A stretch of DNA of 64,000 nt, from positions 1 to 64,000 of the IMG/VR virus record IMGVR_UViG_3300032330_001040; one strand, 5' to 3'. The position numbers were made by a program, and so were the translations under genes. The DNA is from a virus. Lineage: Duplodnaviria; Caudoviricetes. Positions within the stretch are counted from its first letter, which is position 1. Every line of letters begins with the position of its first letter. Positions 21,065 through 35,356 of the stretch are shown here, piece by piece. The notes under the pieces were generated by a model. It had not been told where the DNA came from, did not search any database, and was given only the letters and a program-made list of their open reading frames with translations.

Positions 21065-21292
21065 ATGTTAGTCAAAGTAAATAATTCCACTTTTGTAAGA
21101 GACACAAATAGTATGGCTCTTATGGATACTGATATGGCTTCTAAAAATGAATACTTATCCAAAGTTCGTATGTTACAGACACAAAAAGAAGAAATAAATA
21201 AAGTAAAATCAGAAATTGCAATCGTCAAAGATGACCTTCAAGAAATCAAACATCTATTGACACAATTAATAAGCAAAGGTTCAAATGTCTAA
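21065..21292 (+). CDS. Small conserved coiled-coil protein of T4-like phages
   Basis: ATG at 21065 ([19 protein letters not shown]...EINKVKSEI...EIKHLL); usual position after the DUF4815 gene. Confidence 0.7.
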
Positions 21293-24200
21293 CGCATATT
21301 CTTTATTAAGTACTGGTAATACTTTTGGTGATTGGATTGTTACAACTAATGCTTTAGTAAAAGAAAACAATGATTTTCATGCCAATAATTACCATAAAAA
21401 TGCAGGTACGTTATACTTAGATGATTCTTCATTAGGACTACAAGTAAATAATCAAGCAATTTTTGCTGGTTCTTTACAAGTAACCGGTACTGGTTCGTCA
21501 GCAACTATTCAAAATAATTTAACAGTACAATCAGGACAAGTATATTTTCAAAATACACAATTAACTTTAGTTGCTTCTGGTCTTATACAAGCCAATGGTC
21601 CTGGTACAGGACTTTATGTTGCTAATACTTCTAATCTTGCTGGCAGATTAAATGTTACAGGTAATACTTTTTTAGGAAACAATTTAAATGTAGTTTACAA
21701 CACAACTACAAGTAACAGTATAACATCACTTGATTCATATGTTGGTAGAACTTTAAATGTAGTTGGAAAAACTTGGACTGATGTATTACAAGCCAATACA
21801 AGTGCCAATACTGCACTATTAACTGTTACTGGTAGAGCATATGTAGATGTATTACAAGCCAATACATCAATAAACACAGCAAATTTAAATGTTACAAATA
21901 ATGTAACAACTGCTAATTTGGTTGCTACAGGTAGTGTTTATGTAACTACTAATATAAATGCAGCTAATATCGTATCAACCAATGTTACGGCTTCTGGTAA
22001 TATATTTTCATCGAATTCTTTTGTTACAAGTAATATTACCACATCAAATGTAGTAGCCACAGGTAGTGTTTATGTAACCAATAATGTTACAACATCTAAC
22101 GTGGTTGTTACAGGTAGTGTTTATGTAACTAGCAATATTAATGCAGCCAATGTTGTGTCTACAAACGTAACTGCTTCAGGTAATATATTTTCATCTAATT
22201 CTTTTGTTACAAGTAACATAACTACATCTAACGTGGTTGCTACAGGTAGTGTGTATGTAACCAATAACGTAACTACATCTAATGTAGTAGCCACAGGTAG
22301 TGTCTATGTAACTACTAATATTAATGCGGCCAATATTGTATCAACCAATGTTACCGCTTCTGGTAACATTATAAGTTCTAATGTATTTGTAACCAATAAC
22401 GTAACTACATCTAATGTAGTAGCCACAGGTAGTGTGTATGTAACCAATAATGTTACAACATCTAACGTGGTTGCTACAGGTAATGTATGGGTTAATAGTA
22501 ATGTACAGGCATCCAATGTTGTAGCTTCGAAATTATATGTTTCAGGTACAACACAGTTAGTTGGTACAGCAAATACTACTGCTGACTTAGGAGTTGGAGG
22601 TAATTTGAATGTACCTAATGCTTTATTCATGGGTAATTCAACATCATCTGCAAACATTTATAATTTAACTGTTGGTCAATCACCGGGAAATGGTGGATTA
22701 ACTGTTCAAGGTAATTTCACTATTGCACAACCAACAATCTATCAAGCACCAAGCTTTACATTGTATGGTGGCACAGCAATTACAGCAGGTAATTATGCAT
22801 ATTTTAATGTAAATAGATTGCCTGGAACTAATGCTTCAATTCGTTGGAATGAAACAAATAAAGAATGGGGCGTTGCAAACGTCATTAGTGGTTCTGTTTA
22901 TCGTATTGTAACTGATGAATATGCAAATGGTAGTTCATCATCAAGTAACTCGATGACATATGCCACTTCGTATGCCTTGGCAAATGCTAATACATTCTTA
23001 CAAAATTTAGATACTGCATCTAATACTGCCATGAAGGCATATGTAGACCAAGCTAATACAGGCATGGCATCATATGTAGTTGCTTCGAATACTGCCATGA
23101 AAGCATATGTGGACCAAGCTAATACAGGCATGGCATTATATGTAGTTGCTTCTAATACTGCTATGAAGGCATATGTAGACCAAGCTAATACTGGTTTAAA
23201 ATCATATACTGATGCTACACATTTCGCAAAATCTGGTGGAGATATTACAGGAACAACAAATGTACAAAGTACATTATTTGTAACATCAACATTGTCAGCC
23301 AATGGTGGTATAAAAATTGGCAGTACAACCATTGCAAATGCTGCTGGTTATTGGACAGGTCCTACTGCTCCTGGTTTTCAAGGTCCTCAAGGATTCCAAG
23401 GCGTACAAGGTGTTGCTGGTTTTCAAGGTCCCCAAGGATTCCAAGGTGTTCAAGGTGCTACGGGACCACAAGGTCCTCAAGGATTCCAAGGTGCTACTGG
23501 TGCTCAAGGTGCTACTGGTGCTCAAGGTCCTCAAGGATTCCAAGGTGCTACTGGTGCTCAAGGTGCTACTGGTGCTCAAGGTCCTCAAGGATTTAATGGA
23601 TTTAATGGTACACAAGGTGCTACTGGACCACAAGGCGCTACAGGAGCTCAAGGACCTACAGGAAGTCCAGGTGGTACAGGACCACAAGGTTTATCAAGTG
23701 GGTCAAGTTTAGTAGTTAGCGGTCCTTTAACTGTTGGCACACAAGGTGCTCCAAATATATCTGCATATATTCAAAATAGTGGCCAAGGGCAAATTTTAGC
23801 TAATACATATTTGACTGGTGTTGGCACCACTAGTGGTAATAATGTTGTCTGTGTCACCACAACCGGAGGCCTTGCCAAGGCAATAAGGTTTGTGGCGCAA
23901 ATAAGCCCAACTAGCTTTACTGATTGGGGTTATCTTGGTGCTGCAGGTCCAATTACTCCGAGTAGTAACTGGTCAATTCAAATGACTGCTACTGGAAAAA
24001 CTTACTACTTTACTTCAGATGGAGATTTTACAGCACCAGGTAATATCACTGCCTACTCTGATATGAGACTGAAAACTAATGTAACTACAATTTCTGGTGC
24101 TTTAGATAAAGTTTCTGCTCTTCGTGGTGTAAGTTTTGATAAAGACGGCAAACGTGGTCTTGGTGTAATTGCTCAAGAAATTCAAAAAATATTACCAGAG

Positions 24201-24323
24201 GTTGTACTTGAAAATAATGATGATGATAAAACATTATCTGTAGCTTATGGTAATATTGTTGGTGTTCTGATTGAAGCTATCAAAGAACTCAAAGTTGAGA
24301 TTGACGAATTGAAGAAAAAATAA
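21285..24323 (+). CDS. Tail fibre with beta-repeats, coiled coil, short collagen and C-terminal peptidase S74 intramolecular chaperone
   Basis: N-terminal NTFGDW motif; repeats; Gly-X-Y run; [12 protein letters not shown]...GVIAQEI...[17 protein letters not shown]. Confidence 0.85.
21880..22530 (+). repeat. Intragenic tandem repeats encoding [16 protein letters not shown]-type units (beta-helix shaft)
   Basis: Many near-identical DNA and protein copies. Confidence 0.85.
23015..23205 (+). repeat. Three 66-nt repeats ([22 protein letters not shown]), coiled coil
   Basis: Direct repeats visible in DNA and protein. Confidence 0.85.
23373..23696 (+). repeat. Collagen-like Gly-X-Y repeat (~36 triplets)
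   Basis: [12 protein letters not shown] triplets. Confidence 0.9.
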
Positions 24324-24366: not shown

Positions 24367-24702
24367 ATGCCAGCTGCATATACCAATCTTTACATAGAAC
24401 AAGGTGCGACTTTTTCAACAAGCATCACATTAGATGATGTGTATGGTGATGCTTATAATTTGGTAGGTTATACAGCCAATAGTCAAATTCGTAAATCTCA
24501 CTATTCTTCTAATACAACAGCGATATTTCAAACATCAATTAACTCAAATACAGGTTCAATTACATTGAATTTATCGGCCGCAAACACAGCAAATATTCCA
24601 GCAGGTCGTTATGTGTATGACGCCAAAATTACTGACCGAAGTAATAATGTATTGAGAATATTAGAAGGAATTGCTGAAGTATTACCATCGGTAACAAGAT
24701 AA
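24367..24702 (+). CDS. Conserved small virion protein (Ig/BppU-like adaptor)
   Basis: NLYIEQGATF...YNLVGYTANSQIRK...GRYVYD...RILEG.AEV.P.VTR family motif of T4-like phages. Confidence 0.7.
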   Translation: MPAAYTNLYIEQGATFSTSITLDDVYGDAYNLVGYTANSQIRKSHYSSNTTAIFQTSINSNTGSITLNLSAANTANIPAGRYVYDAKITDRSNNVLRILEGIAEVLPSVTR

Positions 24703-24941
24703 TGCCAAATGTAACAATCACTCCTCCAGCCTCAATTAATGTAAGAGTTGGAACTCCAACTCCACCTACGGTTACAAGCCGTAATTTAGGCAATAGATTA
24801 CACCAAGCACCAGATTTAAACTTAAATGGTTTGGCTGATGGTTCTATTATTGCATATAGTGCTAACACAGATAATTTTTATCTAACAAATGCAGGAACTT
24901 TACCGTTTAATTTAACATCGCTTGACGCAGGGTATTTCTAA
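24702..24941 (+). CDS. Small fibre-adaptor-like protein ending LDAGYF
   Basis: TAATG-coupled to the previous gene; shared C-terminal motif. Confidence 0.65.
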   Translation: MPNVTITPPASINVRVGTPTPPTVTSRNLGNRLHQAPDLNLNGLADGSIIAYSANTDNFYLTNAGTLPFNLTSLDAGYF

Positions 24942-24942
24942 A

Positions 24943-25209
24943 TTGGCCAATACAACAATACAAATACTCCGGTCGTATGTAACTGCCGTACCAACAGATT
25001 TAAGTGATGGTGAATTAGCCTATTCTTTTGTTTCAAATACACTTTTTATTGGTAATAACAATAGTGGTGTAATTAAAATTGGCGGACAGTATTATATTAA
25101 CACTCTTGAAAATGCAACTAGGAATAATACAGCAAATACATTAGTTTTTAGAGATTCTAATGGTTCTGCGAATGTTTTTGTAGATTTAATAGATGGTGGT
25201 AGTTTTTAA
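24943..25209 (+). CDS. Small fibre module (IQILRS...GELAYS N-domain, ends IDGGSF); probable TTG start
   Basis: TTG at 24943 gives MANTTIQ, parallel to the MANTNIL and MANTTIV starts of paralogues. Confidence 0.65.
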   Translation: MANTTIQILRSYVTAVPTDLSDGELAYSFVSNTLFIGNNNSGVIKIGGQYYINTLENATRNNTANTLVFRDSNGSANVFVDLIDGGSF

Positions 25210-25215
25210 TAAATA
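25208..25215 (+). promoter_or_regulatory. Late promoter AATAAATA
   Basis: nATAAATA at gene boundary upstream of an AGGA SD. Confidence 0.6.
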
Positions 25216-25253
25216 GAATAATAAAAATAGAATAATAATAACAGGATCCAAAA

Positions 25254-27167
25254 ATGGCTAATACAAATATTTTAATTAAACGGTCAAGTGTTACTTCTTC
25301 CCCGACCAGTTTAGCTTCAGGTGAATTTGCATATTCGTACCTTTCAAACACACTTTTCTTAGGTAATACTTCTGGAACTGGCGTTGTTAATATTGGTGGT
25401 CTACTTTATACTCAAACAATTGACGCAGCAACTTCTGCTAATACAGCAAATACTTTAGTAAAACGTAGGTCTGATGGTGCTTTTTTTGGTCAATTATTTG
25501 GTACTGCTAACTTAGCTATTGCAACTGTATCAAATAATACTTTCCAGATTTCTGGTGGTGATATTACCGCTTCAGCACAATACTTTCAAGGCAATAATAA
25601 TGTCTCATTAAATGCTTCTTTAAATAGTGTTTCTGGTTTAAGTGCAGGTTATTACGGTAGTTCGACAAGTATTCCTACATTACAAATTGGTGCAAATGGT
25701 CGCATTCTTTCTGTAACAACCAATACAATTTCTTCTAGTATTACAATTTCTGGTAACACAGGTTCTAGTACATTACAAACTGGTAATGTACTTTCAATCG
25801 TAGGTAATGGAACAGGTATTGTTGCAACTGAAACAGCCAATGGTTCAGGTGGTGCCAACGTAGTCATTTCTACTGATAATACGATTGCTCGAACTAATAC
25901 AACTTCGGTTGGTCTACAAACTATTTCTACTGACTTAACAATTGCTGGTAATTTAATTGTTACAGGTACACAAACATTTGTAAGTACTGCTACTGTACAA
26001 ACTAATGATTCTCTAATTAAATTAGCTGCAAATAATAATACAGCAGATGTTGTAGATATCGGTTTCTATGGTGGTTCTAATACAGGTTCTTCTGTAGCTT
26101 ATCACGGTTTGATTCGTGAAGGTTCGGGTGGTACATCCGCTGGCAACTTCTATTTGTTTAAAAATTTAGCAACCGATCCTACAGGTAATACAGTAAACTA
26201 TGCTTCGCTATCTAAAGCATCTTTGATTGCTGATTTATCATTATCTACAGGCCTTTCATTAACTACTGGTGTAAGTGGTACATTACCTGTTGCTAATGGC
26301 GGTACAGGAACTACAACAAGTACTGGTACAGGTTCAGTTGTTTTAAGTCAGAGTCCAACATTTACTGGTACTGCAAACTTTACAAATATCAACACTGCAT
26401 CAATTTCTGTTGGTTCTACAACATTCGTTGCAAATAATTTACTTGGTTCTTTCTCTGCTAACAGTAATACTTTTGCACAATTTGTTATTCAAAATGCTAA
26501 TACAGGAACACAATCATCTGTCGATTTCGTTGTAAATAACGATAGGTCCACTAACGACACCTACTTTGGTGATTTTGGTATGAACAGTTCTGGATTCTCT
26601 GGTCCAGGTGTATTAGACTTACCAAATGCAGTTTACCTATATGCTAAAGATGCAGATTTAGTTCTTGGTACACATAGCGCTAACGCAATTCATTTTGTAG
26701 TAGCTAATGGTACTACTGATGCCATGAACATCAATTCGTCTGGTGTTGTTACTTTAGGTACTGCTCTTGCCGTTTCTTCTGGTGGTACTGGCCGTAATAC
26801 ATTTACTTCAGGACAAATGATAGTTGGTAATGGTACAGGCGCCTTACAATCATTAGCAAATTCATCATTAACAGTTACAGGAACTTCCGGTCTACAAAAT
26901 AATACAATCACTTCTGTATCTGTTGACGCTTATGGTAGAACAACTGCTTTAACATATTCCGTAATCTCTGGATTAACAGTAGGCCAAGGCGGTACTGGGG
27001 CTTCTTCATTTACAACAAACGGTATCACTTATGGTAATGGAACAGGTGCGATTGGTGTTACCGCTGCTGCAGGTACTTCTGACCAAACTTGGTCGAATCA
27101 AATTCTTACTGTAACAAATGCAGGAGTTCCTGTTTGGACAACAACAATGGATGGTGGCACGTTCTAA
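25254..27167 (+). CDS. Fibre protein (ILIKRS...GEFAYS N-domain, GGTG repeats, ends MDGGTF)
   Basis: Repeated LxVxxGGTG fibre motifs; Thr/Ser/Gly-rich. Confidence 0.75.
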   Translation: MANTNILIKRSSVTSSPTSLASGEFAYSYLSNTLFLGNTSGTGVVNIGGLLYTQTIDAATSANTANTLVKRRSDGAFFGQLFGTANLAIATVSNNTFQISGGDITASAQYFQGNNNVSLNASLNSVSGLSAGYYGSSTSIPTLQIGANGRILSVTTNTISSSITISGNTGSSTLQTGNVLSIVGNGTGIVATETANGSGGANVVISTDNTIARTNTTSVGLQTISTDLTIAGNLIVTGTQTFVSTATVQTNDSLIKLAANNNTADVVDIGFYGGSNTGSSVAYHGLIREGSGGTSAGNFYLFKNLATDPTGNTVNYASLSKASLIADLSLSTGLSLTTGVSGTLPVANGGTGTTTSTGTGSVVLSQSPTFTGTANFTNINTASISVGSTTFVANNLLGSFSANSNTFAQFVIQNANTGTQSSVDFVVNNDRSTNDTYFGDFGMNSSGFSGPGVLDLPNAVYLYAKDADLVLGTHSANAIHFVVANGTTDAMNINSSGVVTLGTALAVSSGGTGRNTFTSGQMIVGNGTGALQSLANSSLTVTGTSGLQNNTITSVSVDAYGRTTALTYSVISGLTVGQGGTGASSFTTNGITYGNGTGAIGVTAAAGTSDQTWSNQILTVTNAGVPVWTTTMDGGTF

Positions 27168-27196
27168 AATTTATTAATTTATTATAGGAGTTTGAA

Positions 27197-27802
27197 ATGA
27201 GTAATGAGAATTATGTTAATTATTATGTAGAAATTTTAACAAGTACATTAACGGACGCAATTGTAAGAAATGTTTCTTTACAGGCAAATGCAAAAGTTAC
27301 TAATGAAGTTATTGAAACACAATCTAAACAATTAGATAATTTAAATGGTATTATTGATAATTTAAATGATGAATTAGAAATAATTAAACATAATAATTCT
27401 GTTGATAATGATAATCGTATAGAAAATTTACAATCAGAATTGAAACAAAAAAATGAACATATTGATAATTTGAACAGACAAGTAAATGAATTAAATTCAA
27501 TGAGGTCTGAATATGATAATGTAAAACATCAAATTTCTCATTTAGATACTTTTAGAAATGAACTATCTAAAGAAAGAGATTTACATCAAAATACTCGCAA
27601 TGATTATGAAAGTAAATTAAAAAATTTACAAGAATCACATAGTGAAAAAATTAAAGAATTGACTGATAAAATTGACTATTTACAATTAACTCCTGCCAAA
27701 CGTAAAAAAATTGATGAAATAAAAAATACTGTTGTTATTGAAAATTTAGAAATTGTTACACCAGAAAATAATACCATAATAAAGGATGGCGGAAGTTTTT
27801 AA
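27197..27802 (+). CDS. Coiled-coil protein ending KDGGSF (fibre-associated or assembly chaperone)
   Basis: AGGAG SD; heptad-rich and charged; shared C-terminal motif. Confidence 0.65.
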   Translation: MSNENYVNYYVEILTSTLTDAIVRNVSLQANAKVTNEVIETQSKQLDNLNGIIDNLNDELEIIKHNNSVDNDNRIENLQSELKQKNEHIDNLNRQVNELNSMRSEYDNVKHQISHLDTFRNELSKERDLHQNTRNDYESKLKNLQESHSEKIKELTDKIDYLQLTPAKRKKIDEIKNTVVIENLEIVTPENNTIIKDGGSF

Positions 27803-27806
27803 TTAA

Positions 27807-28937
27807 ATGGCAAATACAACAATAGTATTAAAAAAATCTGGAGTTCCTGGCAACGTACCATCAACACTAGCCAACGGTGAACTTTCGATTAACTACGCTG
27901 ACGGTAAATTATTTTATCGTGCGGCTAATGGAACAATCTCAACAATTTCCGGTTCAGGCGGAGGCGGAAGTTCGGCAAATTCTTTTGCCACAATTAATTC
28001 AAACTCATCTTTAATATTAGCTACAAGTGCCAGCGATACACTCACTTTTATTGGTGCAAATGGTATTAGTATTACAACGAATACAACATCAAAAACAATT
28101 ACTATTGGTCAAGGTGCTACAGGTCCACAGGGTGTACAAGGTGCTACAGGTCCACAAGGTTCTCAAGGTTCAACTGGACCTCAAGGTGTACAAGGTGCCA
28201 CAGGACCTCAAGGTGTACAAGGAGCTACCGGTCCACAAGGTTCTCAAGGTTCAACTGGACCTCAAGGTGTACAAGGTGCCACAGGACCTCAAGGTGTACA
28301 AGGAGCTACCGGTCCACAAGGTGTACAAGGTTCAACTGGACCTCAAGGTTCTGTAGGTGCTCAAGGTTCTACTGGACCTCAAGGTGTACAAGGAGCTACC
28401 GGTCCACAAGGTGTACAAGGTTCAACTGGACCTCAAGGTTCTGTAGGTGCTCAAGGTTCTACTGGACCACAAGGTTTTCAAGGTTATCAAGGTAGTATAG
28501 GTCCTTATGGTCCAACAGGCCCTCAAGGTAGTACAGGACCTCAAGGTGTACAAGGTGCGGCCGGAACATCAACGAATTCATTTGCAACAGTTAATGCAAA
28601 TGGAACTCCAATTTATGCGGATACTTCAACAGATGCATTGAACATTCAAGCTGGTAATAATATTACCATATCAGCAAATAGTTCAACAAAAACCATCACA
28701 ATTAATTCTACAGGTGGTGGCGGTACAAGCCAAGGTATTGGTGGTTATAATCATTCAACATTAAATTATTTTCCGGTGTATGATTATTTAAAAAATGAAA
28801 GTTATGATGAAAATGAAGCCTATGTTGGTGAAGCAGGTCCTACAGTTGATGCTTTTGGAATTAGTTTGACTACATCTTTTGATTGTATGGATCCTATAGG
28901 CAGTACACAAATATCAGATTTAGGAACTATATCATAA
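27807..28937 (+). CDS. Collagen-containing fibre protein
   Basis: IVLKKS...GELSIN N-domain; about 51 Gly-X-Y triplets flanked by two copies of an NSFAT...KTITI domain. Confidence 0.8.
28113..28571 (+). repeat. Collagen Gly-X-Y repeat with near-identical DNA units ([15 protein letters not shown])
   Basis: Highly periodic DNA, indicating recent expansion. Confidence 0.9.
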
Positions 28938-28946
28938 TTAAACTAT

Positions 28947-28954
28947 GATAAATA
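28947..28954 (+). promoter_or_regulatory. Late promoter GATAAATA
   Basis: Intergenic, followed by a GGAG SD. Confidence 0.7.
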
Positions 28955-28976
28955 TATAAAATATTCGGAGCTTTAG

Positions 28977-31049
28977 ATGCCATCACAAGTACAATTTAGA
29001 AGAGGTAATACTGCACAAGTCCAAGCTTTTACAGGAGCTGTGGGTGAAATTGCAATTGATACAACAACAAAACAAATTTCTGTTCAAGACGGAGCTACTC
29101 CTGGTGGTACATATTTAGCTACACAAAGTTTTGCTCAAGCGGCATACAATACTGCCAATAGCGCAGCATCTGGTGCATATGCAACGGCAGCTTTTGATAC
29201 TGCCAATGGCGCATTTATAAAAGCAAACACAGCCAATACTACTGCTGATGCTGGATTTGCCAAAGCAAATTTAGCCAACACACTTGCTCAATCAGCATTT
29301 AATCAAGCGAATACAGCCAACGTTACCGGTCAATCTGCCTTTGATAAAGCAAATGTGGCAAATACAATTGCTCAATCATCATATAATTGGTCTAATACAA
29401 TTAATGTATTTGCTCAATCAGCATATACTATGGCAAATACGGCCAACATTACTGGCCAAGCTGCCTTTGATAAAGCAAACTTAGCCAATATTACCGCTGA
29501 TGCTGGATTTGCCAAAGTAAATACAGTTTTACTTTATGCGCAATCAGCATTTTCTTTAGCAAATACTACTTCAACAGTATCTCAATCTGCATATGATTGG
29601 TCTAATACAATTAATGTATTTGCACAGTCAGCATATAGTAAAGCCAATGTGGCCAATACTACAGCAGAAGCAGGATTTGCTAAAGCAAACGTAGCTAATA
29701 CAACAGCAGATGCTGGTTTTGCCAAAGCAAATTTAGCCAATACGTTAGCTCAAGCTGCTTTTGATAGAGCAAATACAAAATTTAATTCGTCTGGTGGTAC
29801 AATTTCTGGTGATGTTACTGTAACAGGTAATATATTACCAACATCAGCAAATACAAATACTTTAGGTTCAGCAAGTTATCCTTGGAAATCAGTTTATGTT
29901 GGACCAAATTCATTATATATTGGTGACATAAAATTAAGTAGTGTTGGTGGTGCATTACAGTTAGATAATGCAACAAATCTTGTATTAAATGGAACATCAG
30001 TACCAAATAGTTCAGATATTTCTTTAACTGCTAATGCAGCCTTTGCTAAAGCCAATATAGCTAACACTACGGCTGATGCTGCTTATGCTTGGGGTAATAC
30101 AATTAATGTGTTTACTCAATCTGCTTTTTCAAAAGCAAACGTAGCCAATACTACTGCTGATGCTGGATTTGCCAAAGCAAACTTAGCCAATACTCTTGCT
30201 CAATCAGCATATGATAGTTCAAATACAGTTTTAGTATATGCACAATCGGCATTTTCTTTAGCAAATACTACTTCAACAGTAGCTCAAGGTGCTTTTGATA
30301 GAGCGAACACAAAATTCAATTCTTCTGGTGGTACAATTTCTGGTGCAGTTACAATTTCAGGCAATAATAGTTTAACTGTTACTGGTAACTTAATCGTTCA
30401 AGGTACAACATTTAGTTCCAATACAACAACATTTGAATTGAATGACCCATTAATATTATTAGGTGTTGGTAATTACTTATCAGATACTAAAGATATTGGA
30501 TTTGCTGGTCACTATAATGATGGTACAAATGCTCACTCAGGACTTGTTCGTGATTCAAGTACAAAAGAATATTACTTCTTTAAAGGATATACTCCTGATA
30601 TTGATGCAAATAATAACGTTGATATTTCACACTATTCATTTGCTACAGCCAACGTAAACGCTAATAAAGTTACTGCTAAAGACATGGTGGCTAATACATT
30701 TACCATGTATGATAATGCTTGTACTTCAATTTCACTTACTTCAGTAGGTTCGGCTTGTACATCATTTTTAAATATGAGTTCAACTGTTGATACATGGTCT
30801 TCAATGACATATCGTACTGCAAAATACTTGTGTCAAATAACTGCAGGTTCAAGTTATCATGCAATAGAATTATTAGCAATACATGATGGTAATACAGCCA
30901 ATTTAGTTCAGTATGGTGAAATTGTAACTGCAAATTCTCTTGGTTATTTTGATGCCTATGTAATGGCAGGAACATTCACACTTACATTTACACCAACAGT
31001 CAATCAATACTCTTTTATTAAATTTACAAAAGAATTGGTTAAATCTTAA
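28977..31049 (+). CDS. Fibre protein with Mtd_N-like N-terminus, AFxKAN coiled-coil repeats and C-terminal YRTAKY domain
   Basis: QVQFRRG..AFTGAVGEIAIDT; repeats; DTWSSMTYRTAKYLCQI...ELLAIHDG...QYGEI. Confidence 0.8.
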   Translation: MPSQVQFRRGNTAQVQAFTGAVGEIAIDTTTKQISVQDGATPGGTYLATQSFAQAAYNTANSAASGAYATAAFDTANGAFIKANTANTTADAGFAKANLANTLAQSAFNQANTANVTGQSAFDKANVANTIAQSSYNWSNTINVFAQSAYTMANTANITGQAAFDKANLANITADAGFAKVNTVLLYAQSAFSLANTTSTVSQSAYDWSNTINVFAQSAYSKANVANTTAEAGFAKANVANTTADAGFAKANLANTLAQAAFDRANTKFNSSGGTISGDVTVTGNILPTSANTNTLGSASYPWKSVYVGPNSLYIGDIKLSSVGGALQLDNATNLVLNGTSVPNSSDISLTANAAFAKANIANTTADAAYAWGNTINVFTQSAFSKANVANTTADAGFAKANLANTLAQSAYDSSNTVLVYAQSAFSLANTTSTVAQGAFDRANTKFNSSGGTISGAVTISGNNSLTVTGNLIVQGTTFSSNTTTFELNDPLILLGVGNYLSDTKDIGFAGHYNDGTNAHSGLVRDSSTKEYYFFKGYTPDIDANNNVDISHYSFATANVNANKVTAKDMVANTFTMYDNACTSISLTSVGSACTSFLNMSSTVDTWSSMTYRTAKYLCQITAGSSYHAIELLAIHDGNTANLVQYGEIVTANSLGYFDAYVMAGTFTLTFTPTVNQYSFIKFTKELVKS
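29130..30345 (+). repeat. Ala/Asn-rich coiled-coil repeats (AFDKANVANTTA...) with a duplicated AFDRANTKFNSSGGTISG block
   Basis: Repeats visible in protein and DNA. Confidence 0.8.
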
Positions 31050-31072
31050 AAAAACAAAGGGGACAATGAACC

Positions 31073-32500
31073 TTGGCCACATCAAATTTATTTGTAGTTA
31101 AAAACGGTTTAGCCGTTGGTAACACAAATGTTATCAATTCTTCAGGACAATGGATAGGACCAAGTACTAATATTACTGGTCCTTCTGGTGCTCAAGGACG
31201 TAATGGTGTTCAAGGTTCTACAGGTCCAACCGGTAATACAGGTGTTTCTGGTATTCAAGGACCACAAGGACTTGCTGGAGCTCAAGGTCCACAAGGTTTT
31301 CAAGGCCCCCAAGGATTTCAAGGACCTACAGGAACTCCTGGTGTACAAGGAACTTTAGGTGCTTCAGGTGTACAAGGCGCTACTGGACCACAAGGTGTAC
31401 AAGGTGCTCAAGGACCTCAAGGCAGTACAGGTTTTCCTGGACCTTCAGGTCCATCTGGCGTTCAAGGACCACAAGGTGTATCAGGAGTGCAAGGTGCTCA
31501 AGGTACTACTGGTCCACAAGGTTCACAAGGACCAACAGGCGCTCAAGGTCCATCTGGTGTTCAAGGCCCTCAAGGTACTTCAGGCAGTGCAGGTTTTCAA
31601 GGACCACAAGGTTTAAATGGTGCTCAAGGCACTCAAGGACCACAAGGCGCTCAAGGTCCAGTAGGTAGTAATGGTCCTCAAGGTGCTCAAGGTGGGCCTG
31701 GTTTAATAGGTCCACAAGGTGCAACAGGAGTTACAGGTGTTCAAGGTCCTCAAGGTTCATCTGGAACTGTTGGTGCTACTGGAATTCCTGGTGGTACAGG
31801 TCCAACAGGTCCTCAAGGTGTTCAAGGTCCATCCGGTGTACAGGGTGCTCAAGGACCAGCAGGCGCTCAAGGTCCAGCCGGTGCTCAAGGTTCAGCAGGA
31901 AGTCCTGGCGCTCAAGGACCAGCAGGCGCCACAGGTCCTACAGGTACACCTGGTGCTCAAGGACCTACAGGTGGTTCAGGTCCAGCCGGCGCTCAAGGTC
32001 CAACAGGACCCACAGGACCAACAGGACCCACAGGTCCAACAGGTCCAACAGGACCATCAGGTTCTGGTACGACTTCATCTACTGGTTCTGTTTCCGCATT
32101 AGGAGTTAATGCTTCAGTTGGACCTACAGGTACGATTCAATGTTCGGGTGACATCGTTGCTTTCTATTCTGATGAGAGACTAAAAAAGAATATTGAAATC
32201 ATAAAAGATTGTTTATATAAAGTACAGAGTATGACAGGAATATATTACACAATTAATAAAGTGGCAGAAAAACATGGTTTTACAGATTATAGTAGACAAG
32301 TTGGTTTAATTGCACAACAAATTGAATCTTTTGCACCTGAAGTTATTAAACCAGCACCGTTTGATATAGATGAAAATGGCGATAGTAAATCTGGACAAAA
32401 TTATTTAACTGTACAATACGAAAAAATAGTTCCAATTCTCATTGAAGCAATTAAAGAACAACAAACGAGAATTAAAATATTATTGGAGGAAAGTAAATAA
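31073..32500 (+). CDS. Collagen fibre chain A (98 Gly-X-Y triplets) with S74 auto-cleaving chaperone; TTG start
   Basis: FVVKNGL anchor; collagen 31178-32059; [13 protein letters not shown]. Confidence 0.9.
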
Positions 32501-33945
32501 TGGCTACCAATAATAATTTTAATATTAAAAATGGTTTAACAGTTTCTAGTGCATCATCTAATACTTCTGTTATTAATTCTAGTGGTGTTTGGACAGGACC
32601 AACAACAAATATTCAAGGCGCTCAAGGACCTCAAGGTACACAAGGTGTACAAGGTGCCACAGGACCTCAAGGTTATCAAGGTTCACAAGGTGCAACAGGA
32701 TTTCAAGGCGTAGCTGGTGTTCAAGGTGCTCAAGGTCCAAATGGTAATCAAGGTGCTCAAGGTGTGTCTGGTGTTCAAGGTGCTCAAGGTGCTACCGGTC
32801 CACAAGGTTCACAAGGACCTGCTGGCGCTCAAGGTGCGCAGGGTTCATTAGGAGCTCAAGGCACAATAGGAAATTCAGGTGTTCCAGGAACTCAAGGTGC
32901 CACAGGTTCTACAGGTGTACAAGGTGCACAAGGTAATGCTGGCGCTCAAGGTTCTTCAGGTTTTCCTGGACCTTCAGGTCCATCTGGTGTTCAAGGTGCT
33001 CAAGGACCTACAGGTATGGCTGGTTTTCCAGGTCCTCAAGGTGCACAAGGTGTACAAGGTGCTCAAGGTGCTCCAGGTTCTTTAGGTGCTCCTGGTATTC
33101 CAGGTGTTTCGGGACTTCAAGGACCTACTGGTTCTTCAGGTGCTCAAGGTCCAGCAGGACCACAAGGTGTTCAAGGCCCCGCAGGTCCTACAGGACCACA
33201 AGGTGTTCAAGGTTTTCAAGGTGCTGGAGGTTCTTTAGGTGCTCCTGGTAGACAAGGACCTTCTGGTGCTCAAGGTCCGGCAGGATTTCCAGGACCAACA
33301 GGAACAACTGGACCTACAGGTAGTACAGGATTTCCAGGACCTTCAGGCCCAGCCGGTGCTCAAGGACCTACAGGTTTTACAGGCAGACAAGGTTCTACAG
33401 GAAGTCCAGGTCCTTCCGGTGCTCAAGGACCAGCAGGCGGTACAGGTAGTACCGGACCTCAAGGTCCAACAGGACCTACAGGACCTACAGGTCCATCAGG
33501 AACATCTCCTTCAAGTTTATCAACATCAGTTAGTGCTTTAGGTGTAAATACTGCCGCAGTTACCACAGGATGGTTACATGCAACAGGTGATATTGTTGCT
33601 TATTATTCCGACATACGACTTAAAGATAATATTGAAACTATTAAAAATGCCGGCGATAAATTATATACACTTAATGGAATTTTTTACACACAAAATAAAT
33701 TTGCTGAACAGTTTGGTTATAATGATTATAAAAGGCAAGTTGGTTTAATTGCACAAGAAGTTCAAAAAATTATGCCAGAAGTTATTAAACCAGCACCGTT
33801 TGATGTAGATGAAAATGGTAATAGTAAATCAGGTGAAAATTATTTAACTATTCAATATGAAAGATTAATTCCACTTATTGTAGAAACTATAAAAGAACAA
33901 CAAAAAGAAATTGAAGAATTGGAAAAGTTAAATGGCCACCAATAA
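32500..33945 (+). CDS. Collagen fibre chain B (98 triplets) with S74 chaperone
   Basis: FNIKNGL anchor; collagen 32617-33498; [13 protein letters not shown]. Confidence 0.9.
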
Positions 33946-35356
33946 TAATTTTATTGTTAAAAATGGATTAGCTATTGCTAATACCACATCCAATACTGTT
34001 GTAATTGCTGCTAACGGTGTTTGGGTTTCTTCACAATCATCCTATAGTGGTTATCAAGGTCCTCAAGGACCACAAGGTGCATCAGGTGTTCAAGGACCAC
34101 AAGGTTCTGTAGGTACACAAGGTCCTCAAGGTGCACAAGGTACTGTTGGTCTTTCAGGATTTCAAGGCGCAATAGGTTTTACAGGTGCTCAAGGTACACA
34201 AGGACCAACAGGCGCTCAAGGTTCTTCAGGTTTTCCTGGACCAAATGGCGTTCAAGGACCGGCAGGAGTTGCAGGCGTTCAAGGTAATTTAGGTCCTCAA
34301 GGTAGTCAAGGACCTACTGGTGCTCAAGGTCCACAAGGTTTTCAAGGACCTTTAGGTTCACCTGGTGTTCAAGGACCATTAGGTGCATCTGGTGTACCTG
34401 GCGCTCAAGGCACACAAGGTTCTCTTGGCCCTCAAGGTTTTATGGGAGCATCTCCAACAGGACCTCAAGGATTTCAAGGAAACTTAGGTTCACCTGGTGT
34501 TCAAGGAGCTCAAGGCAGACAAGGACCACAAGGTTTTCCTGGACCAAATGGCGTTCAAGGACCTGCTGGTCCAGCCGGCTTTCAAGGACCTGTAGGTTCT
34601 CCTGGTTCTCTTGGTAGACAAGGTGTTCAAGGACCAACAGGTGCTCAAGGCCCAGCTGGCGCTCAAGGACCACAAGGCCCCGCAGGTGTTCAAGGTTCTA
34701 CAGGACCTAGTGGCGTTCCGGGTACAACAGGCCCACAAGGAACTTTTGGCGCTTCAGGATCCACAGGTCCTCAAGCGGCTTCAGGTGCACAAGGTCCTCA
34801 AGGACCACAAGGACCTACAGGACCATCTGGTGCTCAAGGACCAACAGGTGGTACAGGTGCAACAGGACCTACAGGACCTACAGGAAGTCCAGGTGGTACG
34901 GGACCAACAGGTCCTCAAGGACCTTCAGGAGGTTCAGTAACACAAGTTGTTGCATTAAATGTTAACACTTCTGGTGCACCAACTGGTTATGTTTATGCTA
35001 CATCAGATATAACCGTTTTTTATTCTGATAAGAGATTAAAAGATATTGAAACAAACATACAAGAAGCATTACAAAAAGTAAATGAATTAAATGGTGTATA
35101 TTATGAACAGAACGATTTAGCTAAAAAGATGGGTTATAATAATGATGGTGAAAAACAAATAGGTTTAATTGCTCAGAATGTTCAGAAAGTTTTACCAGAA
35201 GTTATAGGATTGGCGGCTTTTGACACAGATAAATATGGACAGAGCAAATCAGGAAATAACTATTTAAGTATAAAATATGCAAAAATAGTACCTCTTTTAA
35301 TTGAAGCTCTAAAGCAACAGAAAGAACAGATAGAATATATTAAATCAAAAAAGTGA
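33932..35356 (+). CDS. Collagen fibre chain C (293-aa helix, two imperfections) with S74 chaperone
   Basis: FIVKNGL anchor; collagen 34049-34927; [13 protein letters not shown]. Confidence 0.9.

Follow-up and report, generated by a model that had tools for sequence, protein, structure and literature searches.

A putative tail/socket joint chaining phage tail-fibre proteins in gene order

In phage T4, the products of the long tail fibre (gp34-gp35-gp36-gp37) are joined end to end, the gene order follows the position in the fibre, and accessory chaperones of the fibre (gp57A and gp38) are encoded nearby. To our knowledge, the joints of the T4 fibre share no single repeated motif pair. In chaperone-usher pili, whose subunits are monomers with N-terminal donor strands, each subunit has its fold completed or extended by a terminal strand of its neighbour, and the site can be occupied beforehand by a chaperone with a similar strand. 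Tail fibres set which cells a phage binds, and for most uncultured and many cultured phages the membership and order of the "fibre" genes cannot be read from the genome. Here, we analyzed a run of tail-fibre genes (positions 24367-35356) in a 64-kb stretch of viral DNA, referred to as the window, which is the first 64 kb of the 114-kb linear IMG/VR virus record IMGVR_UViG_3300032330_001040. An earlier note on this DNA had proposed that the C-terminal peptide of each fibre protein is a plug for the N-terminal socket of the next, in a docking code collinear with the genes.

Some of the parts involved are known from other phages. In Bordetella phage BPP-1, Mtd trimers are located at the fibre ends (PMC2408619); the literature searched contained no published structure or statement on how the N-terminal domain of this protein, Mtd_N, is held. 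In phage DT57C, strands of LtfA add onto the sheets of LtfC; the fibre donates its N-terminal strands to a dodecameric collar (PMC10713586). In the anchor-branch systems of receptor-binding proteins (KP32/KP34/K1-5/SP6/G7C-type), the N-terminal peptide of the second protein docks on an internal T4 gp10-like branching domain (PMC6872550; PMC13352976). This is the nearest concept we found (PMC6872550), and no paper in the literature searched describes a joint between a C-terminal tail and Mtd_N.

Considering the evidence presented below, we put the probability that 24367-35356 encodes one multi-protein side fibre, whose segments are linked end to end through a joint of a generic type, at roughly 0.65. 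The same pairing of tail and domain is found in unrelated phages and, as far as sequence comparison can tell, therefore probably represents a general joint by which fibre proteins are chained in the order of their genes.

Tail and socket motifs of the fibre module

The genes of the module are listed here in the order in which they occur. The C-terminal tails are treated as candidate plugs, and the N-terminal domains, named ANT or Mtd_N, as candidate sockets.

24367-24702, plus strand: LtfC/p132-like platform protein, 111 amino acids, first gene of the module (PHROG and PDB profile matches)
24702-24941, plus strand: anchor, 79 amino acids, with an extended N-terminus rich in Pro, Thr and Val; candidate plug LDAGYF at the C-terminus
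24943-25209, plus strand: adaptor, 88 amino acids, TTG start; ANT N-domain (candidate socket) and IDGGSF tail (candidate plug)
25254-27167, plus strand: main fibre, 637 amino acids; ANT N-domain and C-terminal MDGGTF
27197-27802, plus strand: coiled-coil protein, 201 amino acids; C-terminal KDGGSF, without N-terminal socket
27807-28937, plus strand: distal collagen fibre, 376 amino acids; ANT domain of the 'LKKSG..GNVP' subtype and C-terminal DLGTIS (second type of candidate plug)
28977-31049, plus strand: Mtd_N fibre (Pfam), 690 amino acids, with the start MPSQVQFRRG and a C-terminal 'YRTAKY' domain at about 30780-31046
31073-32500, plus strand: collagen/S74 chain 1, 475 amino acids, MATxNxFxxKNGL start (Pfam Collagen and Peptidase_S74)
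32500-33945, plus strand: collagen/S74 chain 2, 481 amino acids, MATxNxFxxKNGL start
33932-35356, plus strand: collagen/S74 chain 3, 474 amino acids, MATxNxFxxKNGL start (Pfam Collagen and Peptidase_S74)

The motifs described in the earlier note were all found. Four consecutive genes between 24702 and 27802 end in D(G/A)GxF (LDAGYF, IDGGSF, MDGGTF and KDGGSF), and starts of the form M-ANTxIx(I/L)x(R/K)S...P..L..GE are present at 24943, 25254 and 27807, each straight after a gene with a D(G/A)GxF ending. The gene at 27807 ends in DLGTIS and is followed by the QVQFRRG protein, in which Pfam confirmed Mtd_N (PF18454, residues 5-41, 41.4 bits against a cut-off of 26.3, E 1.4e-10). This protein ends in the YRTAKY domain, and the three chains that follow it (31073, 32500 and 33932) have the expected FxxKNGL starts. 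Each of the four sockets, i.e., three ANT domains and one true Mtd_N, is encoded directly 3' of a tail-bearing gene.

Outside this run the motifs are virtually absent from the 114-kb contig. Only these four among 849 stop-to-stop open reading frames of at least 40 amino acids have a D[GA]GxF C-terminus, and one internal occurrence was found elsewhere. A broader pattern, [DN]x[GA]x[ILVFYM] followed by 0-2 residues, is matched by 5 of the 121 called plus-strand genes, which are the five neighbours between 24702 and 28937; the expectation from composition is 1.6% per gene. The N-domain pattern catches only three genes in the contig, all of them inside the run. The fourth socket, at 24943, escapes this pattern because the gene caller begins the gene at 24922. 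Chance is thus excluded as the source of the motif clustering.

The adaptor start is best placed at the TTG at 24943 and not at the TTG at 24922 given by the open reading frame lister, judging from homologues that begin at the former position. This codon is one base past the upstream stop, and a related locus (L005) has an ATG there. A single PHROG family, phrog_15769, matches both the N-domain of the adaptor and the C-terminal 63 residues of the main fibre. In the coiled-coil protein, 30% of the residues are charged, and heptad-like windows extend over residues 1-125.

Pairing in related loci and in other phage lineages

A search with the 88-residue adaptor yielded 54 related loci in IMG/VR. 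About 50 of them share the module grammar, although the protein bodies have diverged to 30-60% identity, and the module order is LtfC/p132-like platform, anchor, adaptor, main fibre, coiled coil and distal fibres. The LtfC-like protein (about 112 amino acids) is encoded 5' of the anchor gene in nearly all of these loci, and the anchor homologues (65-177 amino acids) have the D[AG]GxF ending. Members of the adaptor family (61-95 amino acids) consist of ANT domain and tail; they are missing from many relatives, and the series is unbroken there. Main-fibre homologues vary in length from 447 to 1054 amino acids with both the ANT start and the tail retained. Most coiled-coil homologues (65-241 amino acids) end in KDGGxF, and some in ..DDF, ..NEF or ..DTF, or have no such tail. 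The distal fibre of the relatives carries the ANT domain of the distinct 'LKKSG..GNVP' subtype. In the window it starts 4 nucleotides past the stop of the coiled-coil gene, and this spacing is retained in 19 deduplicated junctions. Relatives often add an Mtd_N fibre, preceded by a D-[LYFM]-G-x-[ILV] tail.

When deduplicated junctions were counted, a tail was followed by a socket in 70 cases, a socket lacked a preceding tail in 8, a tail lacked a following socket in 37, and neither was present in 232. The 37 tails without a socket belong mostly to a main fibre followed by a coiled-coil gene. If the coiled-coil protein is set aside, plugs and sockets are equal in number in every phage inspected.

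The module is also present in cultured phages, namely Methylophilales phage Melnitz, Pelagibacter phage Mosig, Prochlorococcus phage P-HM1 and Limnohabitans phage DC31, a myovirus of 76 kb that is listed under Pakpunavirus. The N-terminus of the anchor is fused to a fibre of 1020 amino acids in Pelagibacter phage HTVC008M, where a 629-residue protein with a DLGSVA ending is followed by an Mtd_N protein. Relatives were reached only via the small conserved proteins of the module; neither megablast with the region nor tblastn with the 637-residue fibre gave a match to cultured phages.

Some related loci contain additional genes. At L046:8566-10617, a gene for 684 amino acids (GT25, a PLOD-type glycosyltransferase domain and a 2OG-Fe(II) oxygenase) is placed between the coiled-coil and the distal-fibre genes, which is consistent with the collagen-modification cassette downstream in the window. 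At L048:4945-5559, a 204-residue open reading frame without a Pfam match lies exactly between an anchor ending in ITGGTF and a main fibre starting with MANTVIQLKYS, and was possibly inserted at the joint as a mobile element. Two tail/socket series occur in one locus at L157:2371-11647. One consists of a 71-residue anchor and an 848-residue fibre, and the other of a 186-residue tail-bearing protein, a 556-residue fibre, a coiled coil, a 470-residue fibre ending in DYGTL and a 683-residue Mtd_N fibre, an arrangement that suggests two fibres or a branch.

A second set of 80 loci was obtained by searching with the Mtd_N subtype alone. Here, the tail motif was present in 91 of the 145 genes preceding a socket and in 29 of 285 other genes, indicating that adjacency of the two motifs, as the plug-socket idea implies, is strongly enriched in other phages. 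Several apparent misses in this set are longer variants of the motif such as DLGSDSSV. The fibre gene bbp9 of Bordetella phage BPP-1 ends in ADLGGIA, a tail of the same type as DLGTIS, and mtd is the next gene.

Records of ten more cultured phages, drawn from different groups, were examined. An Mtd_N gene follows a DFGAL tail in Pseudomonas phage pphageT12, a DFGTL tail in Synechococcus phage S-TIP37, a DYGSVA tail in Vibrio phage 1.021.B, a DDGGLS tail in Vibrio phage D69 and a DEGRVTP tail in Pseudomonas jumbo phage D6, and E. coli phage Minorna has two successive joints of this kind (DLGEL and DLGVIT). The fibres of pphageT12, Minorna and S-TIP37 are T7-like two-gene fibres. The tail-bearing protein of pphageT12 and Minorna is a virion anchor of the T7 type, with the T7 tail-fibre N-terminal domain (PF03906), and in 1.021.B a beta-helix is located on the Mtd_N protein, which implies that in these podoviruses the second protein reaches the virion only via the first. 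Both parts can also be found within one chain. The fibre of Vibrio phage qdvp001 (..NNDYGAV-VGDG-LVVKHRRGT..) contains the tail, four residues and Mtd_N; tail and domain are likewise fused in P0008 (..SDFGTF-TNPTPA-RFRLRRG..), and P0023 may be another such fusion. A search with the Mtd_N profile yielded 12,275 protein clusters, and in 146 of the 150 best matches among them the domain begins at residues 1-8.

Tails preceding Mtd_N genes often carry the motif twice, about 10 residues apart (ADYGFV...YDYGTL; IDYGLV...LDYGSVA), and others have a conserved FDCMEP.GS....DLG.LT element. Such double or extended tails were recorded at 28880-28937 in the window and in L064, L010, L167 and L169. In view of the two copies or the longer element, the plug probably comprises about 20 residues and not 5.

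The type of tail largely follows the type of the next socket, with 100 and 51 junctions on the diagonal and 13 and 3 off it. From these sequences, two flavours appear to pair preferentially, but non-exclusively: GG-aromatic tails with K-R-S sockets, and hydrophobic-G-x-aliphatic tails with R-R-G sockets.

The proposed joint and competing readings

In the joint that we propose, the last 6-20 or so residues of the proximal protein would form a beta-strand with the motif D-x-G-x-hydrophobic, often in two copies, ending 0-2 residues from the carboxyl end. The socket that receives this plug as an added strand would be the small trimer domain at the N-terminus of the next protein, either Mtd_N proper or its 'ANT' relative. 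Physical contact between the two ends and the geometry of strand addition are what we infer from the pairing. The series would run from the LtfC/p132-like platform via the 79-residue anchor, the 88-residue adaptor, the 637-residue main fibre and the 376-residue collagen fibre to the 690-residue Mtd_N fibre and the collagen/S74 chains, so that the gene order mirrors the order of assembly. The joint to the collagen/S74 chains would be of another kind, from the YRTAKY domain to the FxVKNGL N-terminus. The coiled-coil protein, with a plug and no socket, would be accessory, either as a chaperone capping the socket of the distal fibre or as a side branch.

The structural data on the sockets come from profiles and models. 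For the protein at 28977, a profile of its Mtd_N subtype matches Mtd crystal chains at E 9e-25. In a Foldseek search with the Mtd_N part of the model, Mtd variants occupied ranks 1-5 (probability 1.00, root-mean-square deviation 2.0 Å over 42 columns, 55% identity); the E-value was only 8e-3 because the domain is small. On these comparisons, the protein carries a true Mtd_N domain with the predicted fold of the N-terminal beta-prism of Mtd. The ANT domains are more distant. None of the three proteins (24943, 25254 and 27807) matched Mtd_N in Pfam at E up to 0.1, and an hhalign comparison of ANT with the Mtd_N subtype gave E 7.6e-4 and a probability of 25%, aligned over the full length and in register. 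The AlphaFold model of the adaptor has a core of residues 10-50 with a predicted local distance difference test score (pLDDT) of about 85. VIA-align superimposed residues 7-51 of this model on residues 5-49 of an Mtd chain (1yu0; Z 2.9, root-mean-square deviation 2.9 Å, 42 residues), and neither Foldseek nor VIA-align found a significant fold match for the adaptor model, every VIA-align match having Z <4. PDB matches of a profile of the ANT domain were designed beta-propellers only and were disregarded, as they arose from a chance resemblance in 'DGxIYVGSNDG'. ANT and Mtd_N are preceded by the same kind of tail and are interchangeable behind homologous anchors.

The joint itself was modelled by reading the two in-frame stops of the DLGTIS/Mtd_N junction as Gly, with an alignment of 12 other in-frame junctions. 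In this AlphaFold read-through model, the tail TQISDLGTI forms a nine-residue strand (15-23, pLDDT about 82), and strand 1 of Mtd_N is lengthened to ten residues (39-48, pLDDT 84), with a linker score of 56-58.

A number of observations weigh against a joint of this kind. The best of the five read-through models alone reached a pLDDT of 70, the others remaining at 57-62; moreover, the partner of the tail strand in this model is inferred, and a covalent linker of 15 residues can bias the pairing. In the monomer model of the adaptor, its own tail is disordered (pLDDT <50) and shows no docking in cis. The homology of ANT and Mtd_N, as judged from sequence and models, is likely but no more than suggestive. 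Proteins without the motif precede Mtd_N in Vibrio phage K437b (..EDLRGN), Sinorhizobium phage Phosso (..GDLEQV) and Aeromonas phage MQM1 (..GDVFIQL), the internal Mtd_N copies of P0006 and P0007 have no upstream plug, and in L155 a protein ending in GGSF is followed by the LtfC-like gene. The loci share ancestry, so that the junction counts overstate independence; in single-linkage clustering, 196 of the 286 upstream proteins fell into one cluster, and the lineages were not separated.

These data do not establish specificity. The four DGGxF tails of this phage are almost the same, and the tails alone therefore cannot set the order. In 13 deduplicated junctions, a GG-aromatic tail is paired with an Mtd_N of the RRG type, and four plugs face three ANT sockets. 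Thus, the plug-socket chain in gene order drawn in the earlier note gained comparative evidence from enrichment, conservation and occurrence in unrelated lineages, whereas its specific docking code was not supported.

The near-identical tails and the surplus plug would also fit a scheme in which all DGGxF tails bind one third partner, either the LtfC/p132-like platform or a site on the baseplate. The phage would then have several separate short fibres, and the adjacency of ANT domains would be an inherited cassette order. The LtfC-like gene heads the module, LtfC takes donated strands in DT57C (PMC10713586), and the GGSF-ending protein of L155 is encoded directly 5' of such a gene. We nevertheless regard parallel attachment as quite unlikely, given that tail and Mtd_N are adjacent in BPP-1 and in T7-like phages without an LtfC-like gene in the regions examined, that the adaptors with socket and plug make sense only in series, and that qdvp001 and P0008 have both parts fused. 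Alternatively, each tail might be the last strand of its own trimer fold and Mtd_N or ANT the N-terminal nucleus of a trimer, so that the motifs mark segment ends or scars of gene fission and the segments are joined by other surfaces. This reading is unlikely as well. Unrelated bodies (anchor, adaptor, coiled coil, T7-type anchor and collagen fibre) share the terminal peptide only, the tail type tracks the socket type of the next gene, and the tail appears as a paired strand in the read-through model. In its favour are the 20-30 residues before the tail, which are semi-conserved (e.g., ..VPVW...DGGTF and the FDCMEP element), the disordered tail of the adaptor monomer, and the crystal structure of Mtd (PDB 1yu0), a stable trimer that has no partner.

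The conserved peptide could also be the by-product of a signal in the nucleic acid, in which GAY-GGN-GGN-NNN-TTY-stop serves as a ribosome-binding or coupling element, as a recombination linker for cassette exchange, or as a programmed read-through or frameshift site. Indeed, where the next start is no more than 9 nucleotides away (27785-27806 in the window and the equivalents in L004-L057), the codon of the second tail Gly is GGA in 41 of 50 junctions, compared to 21% overall, suggesting an overlaid Shine-Dalgarno element. With spacers of 26-73 nucleotides, however, the peptide is retained and the Gly codons are at normal usage (GGT 24, GGC 17, GGA 10), indicating that the motif is selected as protein. 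A Shine-Dalgarno element was therefore rejected as the cause of the motif and retained as an overlay on codon choice: where genes abut, the codons of the tail seem to serve at the same time as ribosome-binding site of the next gene. The junctions fall about equally into the three frames (25, 23 and 22), so that a read-through or frameshift signal is not indicated. DNA similarity between junctions is weak and covers only 14-38 nucleotides, and a recent DNA duplication of the junctions was rejected on this basis. Together, frames, codon usage and DNA similarity largely refute an origin in the nucleic acid, which we consider very improbable.

Within the serial joint that we favour, a more detailed mechanism is possible and is put forward tentatively. 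Tail and Mtd_N-type domain might be the halves of a split beta-prism, with strand addition in trans completing the fold, and the joint might exist in two or more flavours that are partly orthogonal. The adjacency of the genes might be kept by the joint forming off one polycistronic message, and the coiled-coil protein might be a strand-mimicking chaperone. If true, genome sequences would directly reveal the order and branching of multi-protein fibres for over 12,000 clusters with Mtd_N at their start. More generally, a joint readable from sequence would make gene order an architectural map, and, given the number of clusters recruited by the Mtd_N profile, the rule would apply widely. It would also bear on why Mtd_N is nearly always found at residue 1 and on how the Mtd of Bordetella phage is held. 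The residues singled out are the invariant Asp and the terminal hydrophobic residue of the tail, and the basic pair of the socket.

Module ends, genomic setting and known systems

At the proximal end of the module, the protein at 24367 matches phrog_3304, 'L-shaped tail fiber protein assembly' (E 2.5e-20), and phrog_1084 (E 4e-25); its score for Pfam LtfC (PF23926), 20.8 bits, is under the cut-off of 27. The two best PDB matches of a profile of the LtfC-like family are DT57C LtfC (8hqz_Q, E 4.3e-4) and T5 p132 (7qg9_R, E 1.3e-3). By analogy with LtfA, the anchor, with its extended, strand-prone N-terminus, may add strands to the LtfC-like protein.

At the distal end, the YRTAKY domain of about 90 amino acids (30780-31046) is common to P0002-P0005, L154 and L155 and has no match to a Pfam family. 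It is found on three different bodies (the Mtd_N type, a 'TFGDW' type and the anchor type), each time with an FxVKNGL collagen/S74 gene on its 3' side, and the YRTAKY/FxVKNGL pair is a predicted third, different kind of junction. The search for loci with this domain used a single protein and found only one close relative. Two of the collagen/S74 chains (31073 and 33932) were scanned and scored 38-44 bits for Peptidase_S74 (PF13884), the cut-off being 22, and about 146-148 bits for Collagen. The chains at 31073, 32500 and 33932 each carry an S74-type motif (SDxRLK) in the form YSDERLK, YSDIRLK or YSDKRLK.

The source of the DNA is an uncultured T4-like aquatic phage. The window has a G+C content of about 32% and contains VrlC-like baseplate genes and others with relatives in T4-like cyano-, pelagi- and rhizobiophages; the completeness of the 114-kb record is estimated at 69%. 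Every gene of the fibre region is on the plus strand. A motif of the T4 late-promoter hexamer type, TATAAATA, is depleted in the whole window, with 2 matches against 12 expected from shuffles. On the 5' side of the module, 21285-24323 encodes a 1012-residue fibre with FapA-like beta-solenoid repeats, collagen and Peptidase_S74, whose N-terminus is a different fibre start that is likewise widely conserved.

A sequence relation to T4 gp34-37 was not found, and the PHROG 'long tail fiber' matches span the S74 chaperone region only; the small coiled-coil protein is similar in kind to T4 gp57A. The likeness to chaperone-usher pili is one of mechanism only, with pre-occupancy of the site by a strand as a possible role for the DGGSF tail of the coiled-coil protein. 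There is no homology to the pili, and trimers with C-terminal tails are proposed here.

Like the anchor-branch systems, the locus has modular fibres, a short conserved peptide that would anchor the next protein, and segments that can be added, lost or exchanged. It differs in that the first protein would contribute its C-terminal peptide and the second an Mtd_N-like docking domain at its N-terminus, so that the joint would be linear. When the proteins of the run were scanned with Pfam and PHROG, no T4 gp10-like domain appeared, a dedicated profile-profile comparison with gp10 not being part of these scans.

With T5 and DT57C, the module shares a probable relative of LtfC/p132 as its first gene and, as proposed here, the donation of a strand to the sheet of a partner. 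In our case, the donor would be a C-terminal tail, and the acceptor the N-terminal trimer domain of the next fibre. The pair Bbp9/Mtd of BPP-1 resembles the locus in its true Mtd_N and in the type of the tail on the preceding gene. BPP-1 would have one joint of this kind and the phage analyzed here four in series, together with the divergent ANT form of the domain, and no diversity-generating retroelement is involved in the latter.

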